A stretch of DNA of 64,000 nucleotides, taken from IMG/VR virus record IMGVR_UViG_3300008117_000025, positions 1 to 64,000 of that record. The stretch is one strand, 5' to 3'. Positions 4,386-44,157 of this stretch are shown piece by piece. Each line of letters opens with the position of its first letter. The stretch's first letter is position 1. The stretch comes from a virus. The position numbers were made by a program, and so were the translations under genes. The notes beneath the pieces are model-generated. The model was given only the letters and a program-made list of their open reading frames with translations. It was not told the DNA's origin and searched no databases.

Positions 4386-4402
4386 TTTTATTTAATTTTT
4401 AA

Positions 4403-4428
4403 TAAATATATGACTTAAGCTTCGCCCA
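4403..4428 (-). promoter_or_regulatory. Promoter TGGGCG-N12-TATATTTA
   Basis: Motif copy. Confidence 0.6.
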
Positions 4429-15866: not shown

Positions 15867-15886
15867 ATATATAAATATATTAAATT

Positions 15887-34736: not shown

Positions 34737-34769
34737 AATATTATATTTTGATATAAATATATACGCTTA

Positions 34770-36931: not shown

Positions 36932-37848
36932 ATTACTTGTTTTTTAGTTATTTCTAATATTTTTGCTATTGCAGCTGCAAAGTTAATTTCTTTATCTGGT
37001 ACTACACCTGCTCTCCAAATATGGTCATCTAATATAACTGATAATTCAGCATCGTGACCATAACTAAATTCAGATAATTGCTCAAACATATAGCGATAAG
37101 CAACTTGAAAATCGTCTACTTGCGCGTCAGCTACAAGTTGGCGAGCTTGATACCAAGCATCTTTATCGCGTTTTTTCAATATTTGAATTAGTTGTTTAGT
37201 CCAGTCTACATTAAGAGCAACCCATTCATATTTCCCATCTTTAACACCTGCTTGTAAATTCTTAATAATTGAACGAACATCAGGATAAAATTCCTTAACT
37301 AGTAATGCTACATTTTGAAGATCATATACTATACCTTCAACATCAAGGATATTAGTGCAAACATGCCTTGCAACATCACCTTTAGATGGTGGTTTTAGAA
37401 TATGAATTTCACAGCGTGATTGAAGAGGCTCAATCAAACGTTCAATGTAATTACAAGTAAGTACAAAGCGAGTTGTGATTGAATACTCTTCAATTAGATT
37501 ACGAAGCGCTGCTTGTGCGGGCTGAGTTAAGAAATCAGCCTCATCTAGAATGACAACCTTAAGCGGTTGGAATGTTGATGTGGAGGCAAATTGTTTTACT
37601 TTATCTCTAATAATATCAATACCATTTTCATCACTAGCATTAATGTAAAGATAATCACATTTAATGTTTTTAACAATTAATTTTGCTAGTGTGGTTTTAC
37701 CTGTACCTGCTGTACCGGTGAAGATGAAATGGGGTATATCGTTTTTAGATATACAATCGGAGATGCGGTTTTTAACCGCATCATTTCCGATGTATTGTTC
37801 TAATGTTTCTGATCTATATTTCTCAATCCAGAGAGAGTGTTGCTTCAT
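36928..37848 (-). CDS. Clamp loader large subunit (RFC/T4 gp44-like AAA+)
   Basis: WIEKYR, GTAGTGKTT, INASDE, DEAD, SRC motif. Confidence 0.95.
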   Translation of the reverse strand: MKQHSLWIEKYRSETLEQYIGNDAVKNRISDCISKNDIPHFIFTGTAGTGKTTLAKLIVKNIKCDYLYINASDENGIDIIRDKVKQFASTSTFQPLKVVILDEADFLTQPAQAALRNLIEEYSITTRFVLTCNYIERLIEPLQSRCEIHILKPPSKGDVARHVCTNILDVEGIVYDLQNVALLVKEFYPDVRSIIKNLQAGVKDGKYEWVALNVDWTKQLIQILKKRDKDAWYQARQLVADAQVDDFQVAYRYMFEQLSEFSYGHDAELSVILDDHIWRAGVVPDKEINFAAAIAKILEITKKQVI

Positions 37849-37868
37849 AACTATTATTTTGTTTTAAA

Positions 37869-39479
37869 TTACATTCCAAATTGTGACAAATCAACCTCAT
37901 CTTTCTTTTTCTCAGCTGGTTTATCATGGATAACACATTCTGTCATTAGGAGTGTAACCGCAGCTGCTGCTGCGTTTTCAAGTGCACAACGTACTACTTT
38001 AGTAGGATCGATAATACCTGATTTGAAAGCATCTACTGTTCTTTCCTCGTTGATGTCAGGAACAGCGTTTTTTTCTTTTAGCGCTTGGATCCACTCATAA
38101 TAGTCTTCACCAGCATTAGTTAGAATTTTTTGGAGGGGTTGGTTACATGCTTTAAATACAATTTGACCTCCCAATCCAAAATCACTGTTATCTCTATTTT
38201 TAATTACATTTTTAGCATTAAATAGAGCCATACCTGCACCTGGTAAGATACCCTCTTCAAGTGCTGCTTTAGTTGCTTGGAGAGCATCGTCAATGCGGTC
38301 TTTTCTTTCCTTCATTTCTACTTCAGTACCTCCACCTACATTGATAATAGCTACACCACCTACAATCTTAGCAAGGCGATCTTGTAAACGCTCGATTTCG
38401 TATGGTGAATTTGCTTGATCGATTTGAGCTTTTAATTCATCAATGCGAGCATCTATTTTCTCAGTTTCACCTTTACCATCAACAATTGTAGTAGTATCTT
38501 TACCTACAGTGATTGTTCTAGCACTACCTAACCAGGACATATTAAACTTATCCAGTTTCATTCCTTTTTGTGGTGAAACCAAAGTACCACCAGTTACAAT
38601 AGCAATATCTTCAAGGATAAGTGTTCTACGATCTCCAAAGTCAGGTGCTTTGACAGCTACCACTTTTAAAATACCTCTCATTTTATTTACAATGAGTGTT
38701 GAAAGTGCTTCACCATCAATATCTTCAGCTACAATCAATAACGACTTATTATCTGAGGAAATGCGTTCGAGGATAGGGAGGAGATCTTTTACAGCGCTAA
38801 TTCTACCATCAAACAATAAAATAGAGGCATCAGTAAGTACTGCTTGCATTGTATTATTATCAGTCACCATATAAGGTGATTTATAACCTCTATCAAACTG
38901 AAGACCTTCTACTACTTCAAGTGATGTTTCACCTGAACGAGATTCTTCCACTGTTACAATACCATCTCTTCCTACTTTATCAATTGCTGTAGCAACTAAT
39001 TCTCCAATTTCCTCATCCCCATTAGCTGAGAGTGTAGCAATTTGTTTAATTTGCTTTTCATCAGTGATATCTACAGATGATGCTCTCAATTCAGATACTA
39101 CATCCTTAACTGCTTCTTCAATACCACGTTTTACTTGAGTAACATTAACTGATGGTTTTGATGTTGCCTCAAGTGCTTGGTCAGCAACAGACCATGCTAG
39201 TAGAGTTGAAGTAGTGGTTCCATCACCTGCTTGATCAACTGTTTTTTGTGCTGCTTGTTTAATTACAGTTGCAGCCATGTTTTCAATTGGATCTTCTAAA
39301 GTAATGGTTTTAGCAACAGTAACACCATCTTTAGTTGATGCTACTTGTCCATGATCTTTTTCAATCAATACATTACGCCCAAAAGGACCCATTGTTACTG
39401 TTACAGCATCGTGTACTTTTTTAATACCGGCTTGTAGTTTTTCTTTCGCTTCACGATCAAATTTAATTATTTTACTCAT
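37869..39479 (-). CDS. groL: Chaperonin GroEL
   Basis: TKDGVTVA, GDGTTT, GLQFDRGY, KAPDFGDRR, IIDPTKV. Confidence 0.97.
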   Translation of the reverse strand: MSKIIKFDREAKEKLQAGIKKVHDAVTVTMGPFGRNVLIEKDHGQVASTKDGVTVAKTITLEDPIENMAATVIKQAAQKTVDQAGDGTTTSTLLAWSVADQALEATSKPSVNVTQVKRGIEEAVKDVVSELRASSVDITDEKQIKQIATLSANGDEEIGELVATAIDKVGRDGIVTVEESRSGETSLEVVEGLQFDRGYKSPYMVTDNNTMQAVLTDASILLFDGRISAVKDLLPILERISSDNKSLLIVAEDIDGEALSTLIVNKMRGILKVVAVKAPDFGDRRTLILEDIAIVTGGTLVSPQKGMKLDKFNMSWLGSARTITVGKDTTTIVDGKGETEKIDARIDELKAQIDQANSPYEIERLQDRLAKIVGGVAIINVGGGTEVEMKERKDRIDDALQATKAALEEGILPGAGMALFNAKNVIKNRDNSDFGLGGQIVFKACNQPLQKILTNAGEDYYEWIQALKEKNAVPDINEERTVDAFKSGIIDPTKVVRCALENAAAAAVTLLMTECVIHDKPAEKKKDEVDLSQFGM

Positions 39480-39482
39480 ATT

Positions 39483-39773
39483 TTATTTTTCTAAAATTGC
39501 CAATAAATCTTGTTCTTTCATTACAATGTATTCTTCCCCTTCAACGGTCATTTTGGTTCCACCAAAGGCAGGAAATACTGCTGTTTCACCTACTTGAACT
39601 CCAGTTGCAAGCCAAGTCCCCGTAACTGAATAGATTCCAGGTCCAACAGCTACTATTTCACCCATAAGTGGTTTTTCTTTTCCCATATCCGGTACTACAA
39701 TGTTTCCGTACATTGTTTCAGTTTCGTCTAATTGTTTAATCACAACGTGATTATAAAGTGGTTTTATCTTCAT
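39483..39773 (-). CDS. groS: Co-chaperonin GroES
   Basis: KPLYNHVVI, GEIVAVGPG, DLLAI. Confidence 0.95.
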   Translation of the reverse strand: MKIKPLYNHVVIKQLDETETMYGNIVVPDMGKEKPLMGEIVAVGPGIYSVTGTWLATGVQVGETAVFPAFGGTKMTVEGEEYIVMKEQDLLAILEK

Positions 39774-39960
39774 ATTTCATTTTTTGTTTGTGTGCAAATA
39801 AAGCATCTTCTAAAAGCTCAATAGGAAATTCAATTGGACCATATTCGCCATCTGAGCAGTCAAATATGACTTTATCTTCATAAAGATCTAGATGAGCTAT
39901 CCTACTATAGCGAGCTTCTGTCCTGAATACTGTTGTTAAATTTTTTATAAATCTATTCAT
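39751..39960 (-). CDS. Hypothetical protein
   Basis: 69-aa ORF; its start is 5 nt from the downstream inverted-repeat arm. Confidence 0.65.
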   Translation of the reverse strand: MNRFIKNLTTVFRTEARYSRIAHLDLYEDKVIFDCSDGEYGPIEFPIELLEDALFAHKQKMKYEDKTTL

Positions 39961-39965
39961 AACTT

Positions 39966-39985
39966 GAAGATAATGACAGGTCTTC
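39966..39985. repeat. Inverted-repeat arm (3' side of hsp20)
   Basis: GAAGATAATGACAGGTCTTC; reverse complement of 40470-40490 except for one indel. Confidence 0.85.
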
Positions 39986-39997
39986 GGTTTTCAAAAC

Positions 39998-40423
39998 TTA
40001 TTTAATTGTAACCTTTTTAGGTGCTTTTTCCTCTGCATAAGGAATATCTATAATAAGCAAACCCTTATCCATATTGGCTTCTAATTTAGCTAAATTAAGT
40101 TTAGAAGCTACCTTCCATGCTAAATCAAAAGAGCGACGAGTAATACCTCTTTGTATATAGGATTTCTCTACTCCTTCTGTTACTTGTTTATCGTGGGTAA
40201 TTCTTAATATATCGGACTCTACTAGAATTTCTATATCTGATTTGTTAAGTCCTACTACTGCGAGTTCAAATCGTAAACCTGTTTCTGTTTCGTAAATATC
40301 AACTGGGTAGTTGATTTTGCTTTCAATTGTGTTAAATGTTGAGTTAGTGTCTAGGATATTTTTCCAAACGACATCAAATGGATCGAATGTCCAATTACTG
40401 TTCCAACGTGTTAGTTGTGTCAT
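39998..40423 (-). CDS. Small heat shock protein Hsp20
   Basis: YPVDIYE, ELAVVG, ITRRSF, MDKGLLIIDIP; start set at MTQLTRW. Confidence 0.93.
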   Translation of the reverse strand: MTQLTRWNSNWTFDPFDVVWKNILDTNSTFNTIESKINYPVDIYETETGLRFELAVVGLNKSDIEILVESDILRITHDKQVTEGVEKSYIQRGITRRSFDLAWKVASKLNLAKLEANMDKGLLIIDIPYAEEKAPKKVTIK

Positions 40424-40469
40424 AGTTTTTGTTTTGTGCATCCCTAAGGTATGCGGTTAATTAATAGGT

Positions 40470-40490
40470 GAAGACCTGTCATGTATCTTC
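40470..40490. repeat. Inverted-repeat arm (5' UTR of hsp20)
   Basis: GAAGACCTGTCATGTATCTTC. Confidence 0.85.
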
Positions 40491-40495
40491 GATAA

Positions 40496-40503
40496 TAAAT
40501 ATA
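40496..40503 (-). promoter_or_regulatory. TATATTTA box upstream of hsp20
   Basis: One of about 10 intergenic copies of (T)ATATTTAT. Confidence 0.55.
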
Positions 40504-40509
40504 TACGGA

Positions 40510-41241
40510 TTAGTTTTTAGGTGGGAGATAATATGTGCTTTTGATAGAGTTTTCTGTATTGAATTCTAGTTTCAAAATACCATTCTCATCAAAATAGCCT
40601 ATTCCTTCTGCACCTTTATTTTCTGTAAATATTTCAAATAAGTAGTTTGCATTATACTGGAATTCAGATGATGGGAGTTCCATTTCAGCATTTGGTGTTT
40701 GGAAGCTAATTTTATCATCGTGTGATGTTTTGCCTCCTAATGTGAAATAAATACCTTTATCTCCTTCACCATTAAATAATGCTTGTATTTTCACTTCATC
40801 GCTACCTAATGCTTTCTTTGCTTTATTATATCGCTCAATAAATTCAGAATCAATATTAAATGAATATCCGAATGTGATTTGGGATTCATCTAACACCATT
40901 GTTTCCATAGGCATCATTCTTAGATCAGCAAGATGATAAGTCAAATCATATTCCATATCAGCAATATTCAATTTAGTGGAAGTGTTGTTTTTAGTTTCAA
41001 CGTTTAATTGAATGAATTGGTTTGTAATACCAATTAATTTAAGGAGTTTATTTGTATCATAAATTCCTAATGTACAATCGTCAAGATCAAAATTATCTGC
41101 TTCAACTGACCCTGCTAGATCTTTAGTTGCAGATGTAAATAATATCTGTACTTTCTTATCTTTAATTGTCCACTTTACCTTTTCGTGTATTCCATTCAAG
41201 TAATACTTCTCAATAACCGATACTAATAGTTGTTTTTCCAT
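40510..41241 (-). CDS. DNA polymerase sliding clamp (T4 gp45-like)
   Basis: Two-domain length of 243 aa, GIYDTNKLL pattern, lies between polB and clamp loaders. Confidence 0.75.
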   Translation of the reverse strand: MEKQLLVSVIEKYYLNGIHEKVKWTIKDKKVQILFTSATKDLAGSVEADNFDLDDCTLGIYDTNKLLKLIGITNQFIQLNVETKNNTSTKLNIADMEYDLTYHLADLRMMPMETMVLDESQITFGYSFNIDSEFIERYNKAKKALGSDEVKIQALFNGEGDKGIYFTLGGKTSHDDKISFQTPNAEMELPSSEFQYNANYLFEIFTENKGAEGIGYFDENGILKLEFNTENSIKSTYYLPPKN

Positions 41242-41242
41242 A

Positions 41243-41581
41243 TTATTTCCAAAATAATTGTATTAAAATTATGCAAACTCCTAGGCCCAAACAAGTAAGT
41301 GTTTTAAGTGTTAAAGGTTCTCTAAATAAATAATGAGACATAAATGTAAATACTACTACTCCTATTCCAAAGCCTATTAAACGTGATGGCCATATTGCAC
41401 CGTCATATGCTTCTACAAAGTTTCTTACTGATGCCATAAAGACGTATGATATAGGGACTCCTAAAAATGCAGTTAAAATTGGATGATTTTTAAACCATTC
41501 TATTTTTAATTGTCCTTGTAACTGGACAAATGTAAGTATTTGGGCTAAAGTTCCAAGTAATATTCCGTATAGTATTTTCAT
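41243..41581 (-). CDS. Multi-TM small membrane protein
   Basis: Four hydrophobic segments (SMR/EamA-like size). Confidence 0.7.
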   Translation of the reverse strand: MKILYGILLGTLAQILTFVQLQGQLKIEWFKNHPILTAFLGVPISYVFMASVRNFVEAYDGAIWPSRLIGFGIGVVVFTFMSHYLFREPLTLKTLTCLGLGVCIILIQLFWK

Positions 41582-44157
41582 TATATAAATTTAAAGAATT
41601 TATTTACTTTATCATTTAATGAGGGGAAATTCCATCCTAAATCCTCATAAATGCCTTTTAGTTTATTTAGTAGTGCTGATTCAAATCCCTCTTCCCTATC
41701 AGCAAATTCATCAATTAATTTAACAATGAAATCAGGATCATTGCCTGTAAATCCAATTACATCAATATTGTATGGATTGGTTTTTAATTGAATATATTTC
41801 ATTTTATCACCAACAGTAAACAATGGATATTGTTTTTGTACTTTTCTAAATTTAAGTAAGTCGTTATAGTAGATAGCTGCTTTAGTATTGATTGGGCATT
41901 TTAATTTTAATGTTGAAAATATTTCACCTGTTTTAGGAGCACGCTCAATATATGATTCTATATTCTTTACTCCTGTTGGTTTAGCTACCTCTTCAATAGG
42001 CATTGTTTTAACATATTTTTTAAAATCAATTATTTGCTGGTCGATTTCTGCTTTGGGTTTACCAAACATAATATCTTGAATTAGTTTCTCTCCAAATTTA
42101 GAATACATTGGAGTCATATTTGATTTCATCAAATCTAATCCTTTCATATCTAATTCATCAACAGTAACACCTTCTTTATTTACAATGTACATTGCATAAC
42201 GACGTTTACCTGCGAAATATCCCCTTTCAATAATTACCTCTTGCTTTAATTCAAAATAATGATCACGTTTACCTACATTAAAGTATTCTCTAGTTACACG
42301 ATTAATATTATCGTTTGCTGCTTTCTGTATTTCAGTAGTAATTTCTAGTGTTGCTTTAATATATTCATCCTTAGTTTTAGTTTCTGGGTAGCGTTGTAGT
42401 ACTAGATCCTTAACTTGAATGAATAGTGAATCGGTATCTGATGTTACAACGTAGTCTTTATCTTCAGTACCTAGTTGTTTATTCATCCATTCATTACAGA
42501 ATTTAATTGATTCTTGAGTTACACGTTGACCTGTTAATGTAATGGCTTTAGATATCATTTTATGACCATCAGTATAGCGCCAACCATTAATAGCATAACA
42601 ACCATAAACGTCATTTAATTTAATTTTATATGCGTGTTGTCTACGATTATAGAATTCACCTTTAACAGCATCACCTGATTTGTATGCTTTTTTCATTGCA
42701 TTTTTGTATTCAACGCGTTTGTTAAACCAATCCGTTAATACATCACATACTACTGATGAGCGATCTGTTCTAAACATAGCACCTGATGCTGCTAGTAACC
42801 AATTGTTTTCTTTAATAAGAGCAATTAGTGTTCCTACTTTTACAGTTGCTTGTTGTGTAGTTTGCTTTGGGGTTAGTTTTTCAATTGTAATTACATCTTC
42901 AGGATCCATTTGTTTTAGATCATCTAATGTCCAATTATTATCGTATTTATCTTTATTTACAATACGACCAACGAATGTCTCAATTCCAATATTTAAAGAA
43001 CGAATAATAGACGGATACAACGAGGTAAAGTCCAAATCAATAACCCACTCATATAATCCTGGTACTGGGTCTTTTAAGTAGCCTCCAGCATATTCTTCAT
43101 GTGCTTCTTTTAGTGATGGGTTTGTAGTTGTAGGTTTATTTGGTGAAACTATACCTTGGCGTTTTAGATAAGTAAGGATAGCTCCATCATTTAATACAGT
43201 TGATAGGTAGATCATTTCATAAGGCACATGACACAAATGACAAATAGCAACTGTTAATTCAATAAATTTAAATTTCTTTTCTAATTCAATAATAATTTCT
43301 ACGTCGCGAAGATTATATTCGATAAATTTATTTGGGTCTTCTCTAAATAATCTATCAAGATTACCTTCATAATCTATTTTACCTAAATTAACATATTTAG
43401 TTCCTATATCATTTAATTTATAGGATGGCTCGTTTTTAGGATTATATTTTTTATATAATAATAGATAATCAAGATGATTAATACCTCCTAATTCAATTGG
43501 TTGAGATGTATCCCATTCAGTAAATTTAATTTTGCGAATTGGAGATAAACGAGCAGCCTCATCTCTACCTAATACATTACATATTCTGTAGTAGAGATAT
43601 GGTACGTCAAAGAACCCACTATTCCATCCTGTAATAATAGTAGGGTCAACTGATTCCCATAATTCAAGAAATAGTGATAGTAATTCTTCCTCACTGCTGC
43701 AGGGTACTACTTGTCTATTATCTTCTTTTATTGCTTGTAGTTGCTTTTTCTCATCTAGAATAAGACAATAATATACTTTAGTTGTAGCATCATACAATGA
43801 AATTGAAGTAATTTTCATTGGTGCTGTCTTAATATATTCAGTAGTTAAAGCACCACCAATTTCACACTCAATATCAAAGTAAATAACATTTTGCCACTCA
43901 GGAGTGTCGTCACTATCTTTATACTTATCAATTAGTACTGCTGTTAGACGATCAATGTCTGATTCGTATAGATGGTTGTCATTCCATTCATATTTGGTAA
44001 CTACTTTTGCTAGTTTACCGTCTAATGTTGGAATAGTACCATTACTATCTATTTGATAGCGAGGGATAGTGTATTGAAATTCACTCCATCCATTTTTATC
44101 ATCACGTAAATGAAATTTGTAGTTCGGTTTCCCGTCGTAGTAGATTGCTTGATACAT
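41581..44157 (-). CDS. DNA polymerase family B (T4 gp43-like)
   Basis: ExoI FDIEC, ExoII GWN..FD, ExoIII YN..D; DFTSLYPS, KxxxNxxYG, DTDS. Confidence 0.97.
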   Translation of the reverse strand: MYQAIYYDGKPNYKFHLRDDKNGWSEFQYTIPRYQIDSNGTIPTLDGKLAKVVTKYEWNDNHLYESDIDRLTAVLIDKYKDSDDTPEWQNVIYFDIECEIGGALTTEYIKTAPMKITSISLYDATTKVYYCLILDEKKQLQAIKEDNRQVVPCSSEEELLSLFLELWESVDPTIITGWNSGFFDVPYLYYRICNVLGRDEAARLSPIRKIKFTEWDTSQPIELGGINHLDYLLLYKKYNPKNEPSYKLNDIGTKYVNLGKIDYEGNLDRLFREDPNKFIEYNLRDVEIIIELEKKFKFIELTVAICHLCHVPYEMIYLSTVLNDGAILTYLKRQGIVSPNKPTTTNPSLKEAHEEYAGGYLKDPVPGLYEWVIDLDFTSLYPSIIRSLNIGIETFVGRIVNKDKYDNNWTLDDLKQMDPEDVITIEKLTPKQTTQQATVKVGTLIALIKENNWLLAASGAMFRTDRSSVVCDVLTDWFNKRVEYKNAMKKAYKSGDAVKGEFYNRRQHAYKIKLNDVYGCYAINGWRYTDGHKMISKAITLTGQRVTQESIKFCNEWMNKQLGTEDKDYVVTSDTDSLFIQVKDLVLQRYPETKTKDEYIKATLEITTEIQKAANDNINRVTREYFNVGKRDHYFELKQEVIIERGYFAGKRRYAMYIVNKEGVTVDELDMKGLDLMKSNMTPMYSKFGEKLIQDIMFGKPKAEIDQQIIDFKKYVKTMPIEEVAKPTGVKNIESYIERAPKTGEIFSTLKLKCPINTKAAIYYNDLLKFRKVQKQYPLFTVGDKMKYIQLKTNPYNIDVIGFTGNDPDFIVKLIDEFADREEGFESALLNKLKGIYEDLGWNFPSLNDKVNKFFKFI

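Follow-up and report, generated by a model that had tools for sequence, protein, structure and literature searches.

We propose that the hsp20 message of this virus carries a cis-acting RNA element, a fold-back clamp in which the 5' end of the message would pair with a segment just past the stop codon and for which a small hairpin at the 5' end would provide the alternative fold, and from the comparison of related sequences we put the probability of this reading at roughly 0.55. That the two complementary arms represent a selected RNA-RNA pairing we regard as very likely. Both lie on the minus strand of the window, by which we mean the whole stretch of 64,000 nucleotides that was analyzed. The 5' arm (GAAGAUACAUGACAGGUCUUC, 21 nt, 40490 to 40470) begins 4 nt past a promoter-like box (TATATATTTAT, 40495 to 40505, minus strand), and the 3' arm (GAAGACCUGUCAUUAUCUUC, 20 nt, 39985 to 39966) starts 12 nt past the stop codon of hsp20, with 5 nt between its end and the ATG (39960) of the next open reading frame (ORF). 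The arms contain a perfect 13-nt core and pair over 20 bp with one bulged C, and in this we reproduce the initial annotation of this DNA, which had described 20/21-nt arms with one bulged C bracketing hsp20 and a 3' arm ending 5 nt before the next ATG. It had also placed the 5' arm about 5 nt past the box and hence probably at the start of the transcript, where the measured distance is 4 nt and the placement at the 5' end is likewise probable.

On the minus strand the genes run in the order family-B DNA polymerase, a 112-aa ORF, a 243-aa ORF, hsp20, a 69-aa ORF (orf69), groES and groEL. Within 37869 to 44157 on the minus strand, a phage chaperone cluster of hsp20, groES and groEL lies directly downstream of the DNA polymerase module, an order that is kept in most relatives. 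The product of hsp20 is recognized as Hsp20 both by Pfam (PF00011, E = 2e-11) and by PHROG (PHROG 432, 7e-17); Pfam and PHROG searches with the 243-aa ORF and a Pfam search with the 112-aa ORF were empty. The ORF call for hsp20 reaches 40441, but the start codon is most likely the second ATG at 40423 (MTQLTRW...), giving a coding sequence of 141 aa at 39998 to 40423 on the minus strand, because the first ATG (40441) forms part of a hairpin in the leader and lies outside the coding sequence in relatives. The ATG of orf69 (39751 to 39960, minus strand) follows 5 nt past the 3' arm, and this ORF is context and not necessarily part of the element. Two unrelated families of ~65-aa ORFs occur between hsp20 and groES (39751 to 39960 on the minus strand of the window, L007:3448-3639 and L098:1582-1782), one of which resembles orf69 and the other of which has a conserved ...FRKDGxLYF... 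motif. Representatives of both families gave no PHROG match, and orf69 gave no Pfam match either. In other relatives groES comes directly after hsp20 with no intervening ORF, and across the relatives the downstream gene belongs to three or more unrelated families while the 3' arm remains beside hsp20.

A spacer (GUUUUGAAAACC, 39986 to 39997, minus strand) separates the 3' arm from the stop codon of hsp20, and the stretch GUUUUGAA is kept there in many relatives, with no covariation evidence that it pairs with any segment. This stretch is present twice in L089, and in L029 an insertion is followed by a second copy of the stop-codon context AAAUAA-A-GUUUUG (variant GUUUUGUA). The L007 clade has an almost identical string within the opening codons of the downstream ORF, so the junction between hsp20 and that ORF may have been rearranged in the past. 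A second long-range helix, between CAAAAC in the leader and GUUUUG after the stop codon, was also considered as a candidate, but its two sides are either invariant or absent together and thus provide no covariation evidence.

Judged from this genome alone, the significance of the repeat is borderline. The arm pair is the top-scoring gapped inverted repeat in the 183 kb when arms are required to be 150-3000 nt apart, with an equal score reached in 2 of 20 shuffled genomes, and some ten further perfect 13-15-mers with a comparable G+C content are present in the same genome. When the hsp20 flanks are tested alone, the duplex has a z score of -6.7 (0 of 300 shuffles). The 13-mer core is found in two copies only in the complete virus genome of 182,846 bp, even with one mismatch allowed, so that a dispersed repeat family could be rejected, and no comparable bracket was found around any other gene in the 183 kb. 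A reading of the window arms as terminators was likewise rejected, as there is no terminator-like site in 37500-41500. An Rfam scan of the region at a permissive threshold returned chance-level matches only, with E values of at least 0.01 and all far below the gathering scores.

The case for a selected pairing comes from the relatives. Two scans of IMG/VR provided 35 and then 80 loci, out of 222 confirmed relatives, with Hsp20 proteins that are 44-87% identical. Complementarity between the 5' and 3' flanks is kept, with differing sequences, in all other relatives for which both flanks are available (59 distinct arm pairs); L099, a sequence without the leader, lies outside this comparison. Even in the most distant clade (L035/L125 and L126), whose Hsp20 is 44% identical to that of the window and 61% between its two members, the arms, which are G+C-rich and have no sequence relationship to those of the window, retain the pairing between 5' loop and 3' flank (CUGGGCGGC with GCCGCCCA, and GCGGGCGG with CCGCCCGC), with a switch from U-A to C-G between the two loci. 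In these loci the 3' arm is inside a terminator-like hairpin that is followed by a U run, and the 5' arm would have to compete with this hairpin for the 3' arm. The possibility that such flanks are a general trait of phage hsp20 genes was rejected, as the flanks in Melnitz and three cyanophages (Hsp20 26-31% identical) have z scores of +0.5 to -1.2. These more distant flanks have no excess complementarity, and therefore the element belongs to this lineage and not to hsp20 generally. No cultured phage was found with a close homologue of this Hsp20, the best deposited phage Hsp20 being 29% identical, and Flavobacterium phage immuto has groES-groEL with no hsp20 at that locus. Among cellular homologues, one scan of species-representative genomes gave a single match with the same leader, and it lies on a contig of a metagenome-assembled genome.

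The two arms change together across these loci. Matched cores include GACAGG with CCUGUC, GGUAGG with CCUACC, GAUAGG with CCUAUC, GGCAGAUCU with AGAUCUGUCC (where the 5' core is one base short) and UUGGUGGGCU with AGCCCGCCAA (with one U·G pair), and the outer parts of the arms vary as well (GAAGA, GAGA, CAAGA, AGG, GCAA, ACGA, AGGA, and GCUAG). Duplexes of an arm with its own partner average -27.3 kcal/mol as compared to -17.7 kcal/mol with a foreign partner, a difference such that 0 of 10,000 permutations of the partners gave a value as low. When 55 distinct arm pairs are aligned on the AGG/CCU anchor, all six core positions from -5 to 0 are 100% paired, and clean switches are seen at position -4 (G-C 28, A-U 27) and position -3 (C-G 27, U-A 26). 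Position +1 is U-A in 30 cases, C-G in 17 and U·G in 5, and the flanking positions are mixtures of U-A, C-G and U·G. Taken over the helix, 14 positions (-12 to -9 and -5 to +4) are 91-100% paired, with a looser hinge at -8 to -6. The initial annotation had suggested looking for compensatory changes in related phages, and the outcome is strongly positive. Parsimony on a quick maximum likelihood tree of Hsp20 gives ~10-12 switches of Watson-Crick type at positions -4 and -3, a count that may be inflated given that the tree is short and weakly resolved.

The same helix emerges from an alignment made on sequence only. RNAalifold applied to such a MAFFT alignment (31 sequences, 709 columns) recovered the long-range helix unprompted, and its 14 long-range pairs have 83.1% paired cells, as compared to 77.2 ± 0.8% after shuffling (0 of 500) and 33-39% when the partner is slid, and 40 cells with double changes, as compared to 16.6 ± 5.1 (0 of 500), even though a misalignment by two columns causes three sequences, among them the window, to be scored as unpaired. 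The length of the helix ranges from 13 to 26 bp across loci with a median of 21 bp (20 bp in the window), and it is 13-15 bp in 13 of the 59 distinct arm pairs. The complementarity seems to run on into the AT-rich region of the promoter and into the opening codons of the next gene, but this extension was discarded as inseparable from chance in A+T-rich sequence, except in L113/L114, whose helix is solid over ~26 bp.

The 5' arm also folds by itself. In the window its local hairpin has the stem GAAGAU/GUCUUC and a loop of 9 nt, and the 5' arm folds alone in every locus with a stem of 4-9 bp and a loop of 7-9 nt, the consensus being AUACGRYAGGU for the stem-closing U·G pair and the loop. Among 53 aligned leaders the five core pairs of this hairpin are 94.3% paired and four of the five are changed on both sides (for example, G-C 21, A-U 20 and C-G 3 in one column pair), with far lower values in the shuffled and slid controls. 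This local stem persists even where the 3' arm has no matching distal part, as in L007 and L011 (CAAGA/UCUUG, also in L031), L023 (ACGA/UCGU), L081 (AAGA/UCUU), and L088 and L093 (GCUAG/CUAGC, also in L092), and therefore it is not a by-product of the long-range helix. The initial annotation had stated that each arm can fold alone, and while both do so in this genome, only the 5' hairpin is conserved among relatives; that of the 3' arm is weak and not conserved (z ~0 in most loci). Its proposal of two mutually exclusive states is borne out, in that a covarying local hairpin and the long-range helix are predicted to be mutually exclusive. The invariably paired core of the long-range helix consists of the 3' half of the hairpin loop together with the 3' strand of the hairpin, and in most relatives the 5' strand of the hairpin is also complementary to the 3' arm. 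Since the core includes the unpaired loop, a toehold for strand invasion would be available.

Folding of the whole transcript (532 nt) leads to the closed form, with both the minimum free energy and the centroid structures closing on the long-range helix (z -5.1) and leaving the start region unpaired. These predictions show that the closed form would be thermodynamically preferred once the 3' arm is made. A scan along the transcript gives the 5' arm one partner site, in the 3' flank, with a mean of -21 to -25 kcal/mol, as compared to -2 to -9 kcal/mol for the coding region and up to about -12 kcal/mol for the bin just past the arm. Hence no third pairing partner of the kind represented by ucb in hok was found for the 5' arm along the transcript.

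The leader contains a second conserved structure. A hairpin with a bulged A (GCAU-A-CC UUAG GG-AUGC, 40438 to 40455, minus strand) is situated ~14 nt before the start codon, and in the 53 leaders it is 98.1% paired with compensatory changes at five of its six pairs; it is also predicted by RNAalifold. Its consensus is GCNN-A-CC, a tetraloop (UUAG, UUCG or others) and GG-NNGC, and it is unique in the genome. The hairpin is absent from the L098-L115 clade, in which ACAGGAGG precedes the ATG instead. A strong Shine-Dalgarno-like ACAGGAGG(U) is seen before the hsp20 ATG in L006, L010, L025, L029, L030, L051, L081-L084, and L088-L118, and the leaders of the window and of many other loci are A-rich without a Shine-Dalgarno-like stretch, a difference that may reflect hosts with different habits of translation initiation. 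Melnitz and the cyanophages P-RSM1, S-RIM12, and S-RIM32 (L121-L124) have a leader hairpin ~25-50 nt before the hsp20 ATG, with a loop of UUCG in the three cyanophages and AUUA in Melnitz, and its likeness to the bulged hairpin is a candidate one only. The cyanophage leaders also have a conserved stretch of the CUCGCUUAAAUAAGGAG type after this hairpin, of which Melnitz has a looser version.

The box upstream of the 5' arm is conserved at that position in most relatives, and similar sequences recur in the genome. The motif [AG]TATATTTAT[AT], or the longer TATAT[AT]TTTAT, has 15 sites on the minus strand and one on the plus strand of the whole genome, and 11 of the 15 minus strand sites are ~4-32 nt before an ATG. 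Examples in the window, all on the minus strand, are at 40495-40505, 34753-34763, 15870-15880, and 4401-4411. The recurring AT motif is probably a class of phage promoter, and it is probable from its position that the hsp20 message begins at the 5' arm or within a few nt of it. The resulting leader of ~70 nt is unusually long compared with those of the other genes that have the box.

A mechanism for the clamp can be envisaged as follows. Transcription would start at the conserved AT box and the message would open with the small 5'-arm hairpin, which during transcription would be the sole possible fold. When the 3' arm has been made, it would invade the stem of the hairpin from the unpaired loop toehold, and the long-range helix of 13-26 bp would close the cistron into a loop of ~480 nt. 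The double-stranded ends might then protect the RNA against end-dependent RNases, in the way described for hbs and for full-length hok mRNA, or they might alternatively serve as a double-strand cut site for host RNase III that separates hsp20 from the downstream groES-groEL message. We infer both the order of these events, with the hairpin first and closure after ~480 nt, and their output. That the output is the stability or processing of the message, rather than the translation of the neighboring gene, is a tentative choice at slightly less than even odds. An effect on the fate of the message is favored because nothing is universal except that one arm sits at either end of the cistron, and because the features that other models need are not universal. 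In most loci there is no U tract after the 3' arm and further genes follow, and hence the 3' end of the message is either assumed or made by cleavage.

A more specific version, which we consider rather doubtful, is that a programmed folding pathway of the hok type operates on a viral chaperone gene, such that completion of the cistron triggers a loop-mediated strand invasion that closes the message. If true, the folding pathway would time or cap the synthesis of Hsp20, or decide whether transcription and decay continue into groES-groEL. The terminator-like hairpin around the 3' arm of the most distant clade would fit such a role.

The long-range helix might instead be a processing stem for RNase III, a cleavage site by which a monocistronic hsp20 mRNA is excised from a longer transcript of the chaperone cluster. 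Its length of 20 bp in the window and the median of 21 bp are suited to this, the arms bracket exactly one cistron, and in most loci there is no terminator past the 3' arm and groES-groEL come next on the same strand. Even so, we judge this to be unlikely as a general explanation. Many loci have helices of 13-15 bp, which are short for RNase III and make such cleavage possible but not general, and the phage has no gene for RNase III (rnc). A processing stem would also have no role for the conserved alternative 5' hairpin, and in the most distant clade the terminator-like hairpin would provide a 3' end for which no cut is needed.

Translational control of the downstream gene is a further and still less probable explanation, according to which the helix masks the initiation region of that gene and is reopened by ribosomes terminating on hsp20, thereby coupling the two. 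In the window there are indeed only 5 nt between the arm and the next ATG, the helix reaches or enters the start codon in many relatives, and the arm often begins 1-15 nt past the hsp20 stop codon. These distances are not maintained, however, as the arm ends ~20-27 nt before the ATG where groES directly follows and begins 28-44 nt past the stop codon in some loci. Taken over all loci, the arm starts 1-44 nt past the stop codon and 0 to more than 25 nt separate the helix from the ATG that follows, and these variable distances, together with the fact that the arm stays with hsp20 next to at least three unrelated downstream families, argue against an obligatory translational coupling. Moreover, the masking strand would be in the untranslated leader, unlike in known coupling structures.

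RNA thermometers are known for other hsp20 genes, and the initial annotation had put forward a thermosensor among its possible functions. That the gene encodes an Hsp20 and that two alternative folds exist would be in keeping with a helix that melts upon heating to switch on hsp20. The helix, however, is at least 46 nt upstream of the ATG and leaves the start region uncovered. It never lies over the hsp20 start region, which therefore argues against control of the icaR type as well as against a thermometer. The duplex is also far more stable than the weak helices of known thermometers such as ROSE and fourU elements (a mean of about -27 kcal/mol, without the cost of loop closure), and its 14 helix positions, 91-100% paired, are not the weak or mismatched pairs that melt. 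We thus consider a thermometer very improbable and do not retain this claim.

The evidence also speaks to whether the arms act in RNA or in DNA. Among lone non-Watson-Crick positions that have at least three pairs to either side, 10 (in 8 contexts) are G·U and a single one, located outside the arms, is A·C. Neutral decay of a DNA repeat is expected to give G·U and A·C in equal numbers, and the prevalence of G·U over A·C therefore indicates that pairing takes place in the sense-strand RNA. Of the two possible duplexes, the sense one is the more stable in 21 loci and the antisense one in 8, and the large differences all favor sense. Gene conversion between the arms could add matched changes but would not explain the G·U bias. 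The initial annotation had named DNA inversion sites as its alternative, and a DNA-level element, representing either inversion sites for a site-specific recombinase or paired operators of a co-evolving DNA-binding protein, would account for arms that are each a partial palindrome with an asymmetric center and are mutually inverted like recombinase sites, and partner recombination sites would likewise show matched changes. Against it, hsp20 has the same orientation as its neighbors in all 33 loci with flanks and an inverted copy was never seen, the complete genome has no match to resolvase (PF00239) or tyrosine recombinase (PF00589), and 1-nt indels and bulges occur within the arms. In addition, the palindromic ends of the arms vary freely under the pairing constraint and the asymmetric center is conserved. 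Recombinase sites have the opposite pattern. The G·U bias is also strand-specific, and a DNA-level element, inversion sites included, is on this evidence scarcely credible.

The fold-back clamp is of interest for several reasons. To our knowledge, long-range end-to-end pairing in bacterial and phage messages has been described for a handful of genes (hok, hbs, and icaR), and support by covariation is rarer still. Natural compensatory mutations in more than 80 phage genomes, together with a conserved competing hairpin and an adjacent probable promoter, represent a clean natural system, and the putative element should be useful for studying how a fold switches after full transcription and how a phage doses its own chaperones. 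The clamp and the bulged leader hairpin also add two uncatalogued candidate RNA motifs to a large lineage of uncultured aquatic phages.

Several known systems resemble the proposed element in part. Complementary segments that form RNase III processing stems flank the 16S and 23S rRNAs and are found at the early genes and intercistronic sites of T7. As here, they bracket a functional unit with a stem of ~20 bp, but some of the stems in our relatives are too short for canonical RNase III and a competing local hairpin is conserved. In the icaR message of Staphylococcus aureus the 3' flank pairs with its own 5' leader, forming a substrate of RNase III that covers the Shine-Dalgarno region and blocks translation (PMC3868564). 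The pairing of a 3' flank with the leader of the same mRNA is shared with hsp20, whereas in the window the helix described here stops 46 nt short of the ATG and the ribosome-binding region is predicted to be unpaired. The hbs mRNA of Bacillus subtilis has a helix of 14 bp between its 5'- and 3'-UTRs that modulates the access of endonuclease and hence the stability of the mRNA, and its leader is structured and contains a mapped RNase Y site with which the paired region overlaps (PMC5737220). It is similar to the hsp20 element in having a helix of comparable size (14 as compared to 13-26 bp) that connects the 3' flank of a short, monocistronic message with its leader, and it differs in that the partner here is a 5'-terminal hairpin with an alternative fold and in that a stabilizing effect is here putative.

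The hok mRNA of the hok/sok system of plasmid R1 combines the tac/fbi fold-back stem with a metastable 5' structure (PMC9841398). As in the hsp20 message, the 5' terminal segment of hok pairs either with an adjacent downstream region, transiently, or with the 3' end of the message in a closing stem. Coupled covariations were the original evidence in the hok family as well. The gene here encodes the chaperone Hsp20 instead of a type I toxin and has no known antisense RNA. Neither a third partner like ucb nor a masking of its own start region was found, and in most loci more genes follow the 3' arm. The tac/fbi pairing of hok appears to be functionally the closest to the element proposed here, and the bare pairing between a 5'- and a 3'-UTR is shared with hbs and icaR.
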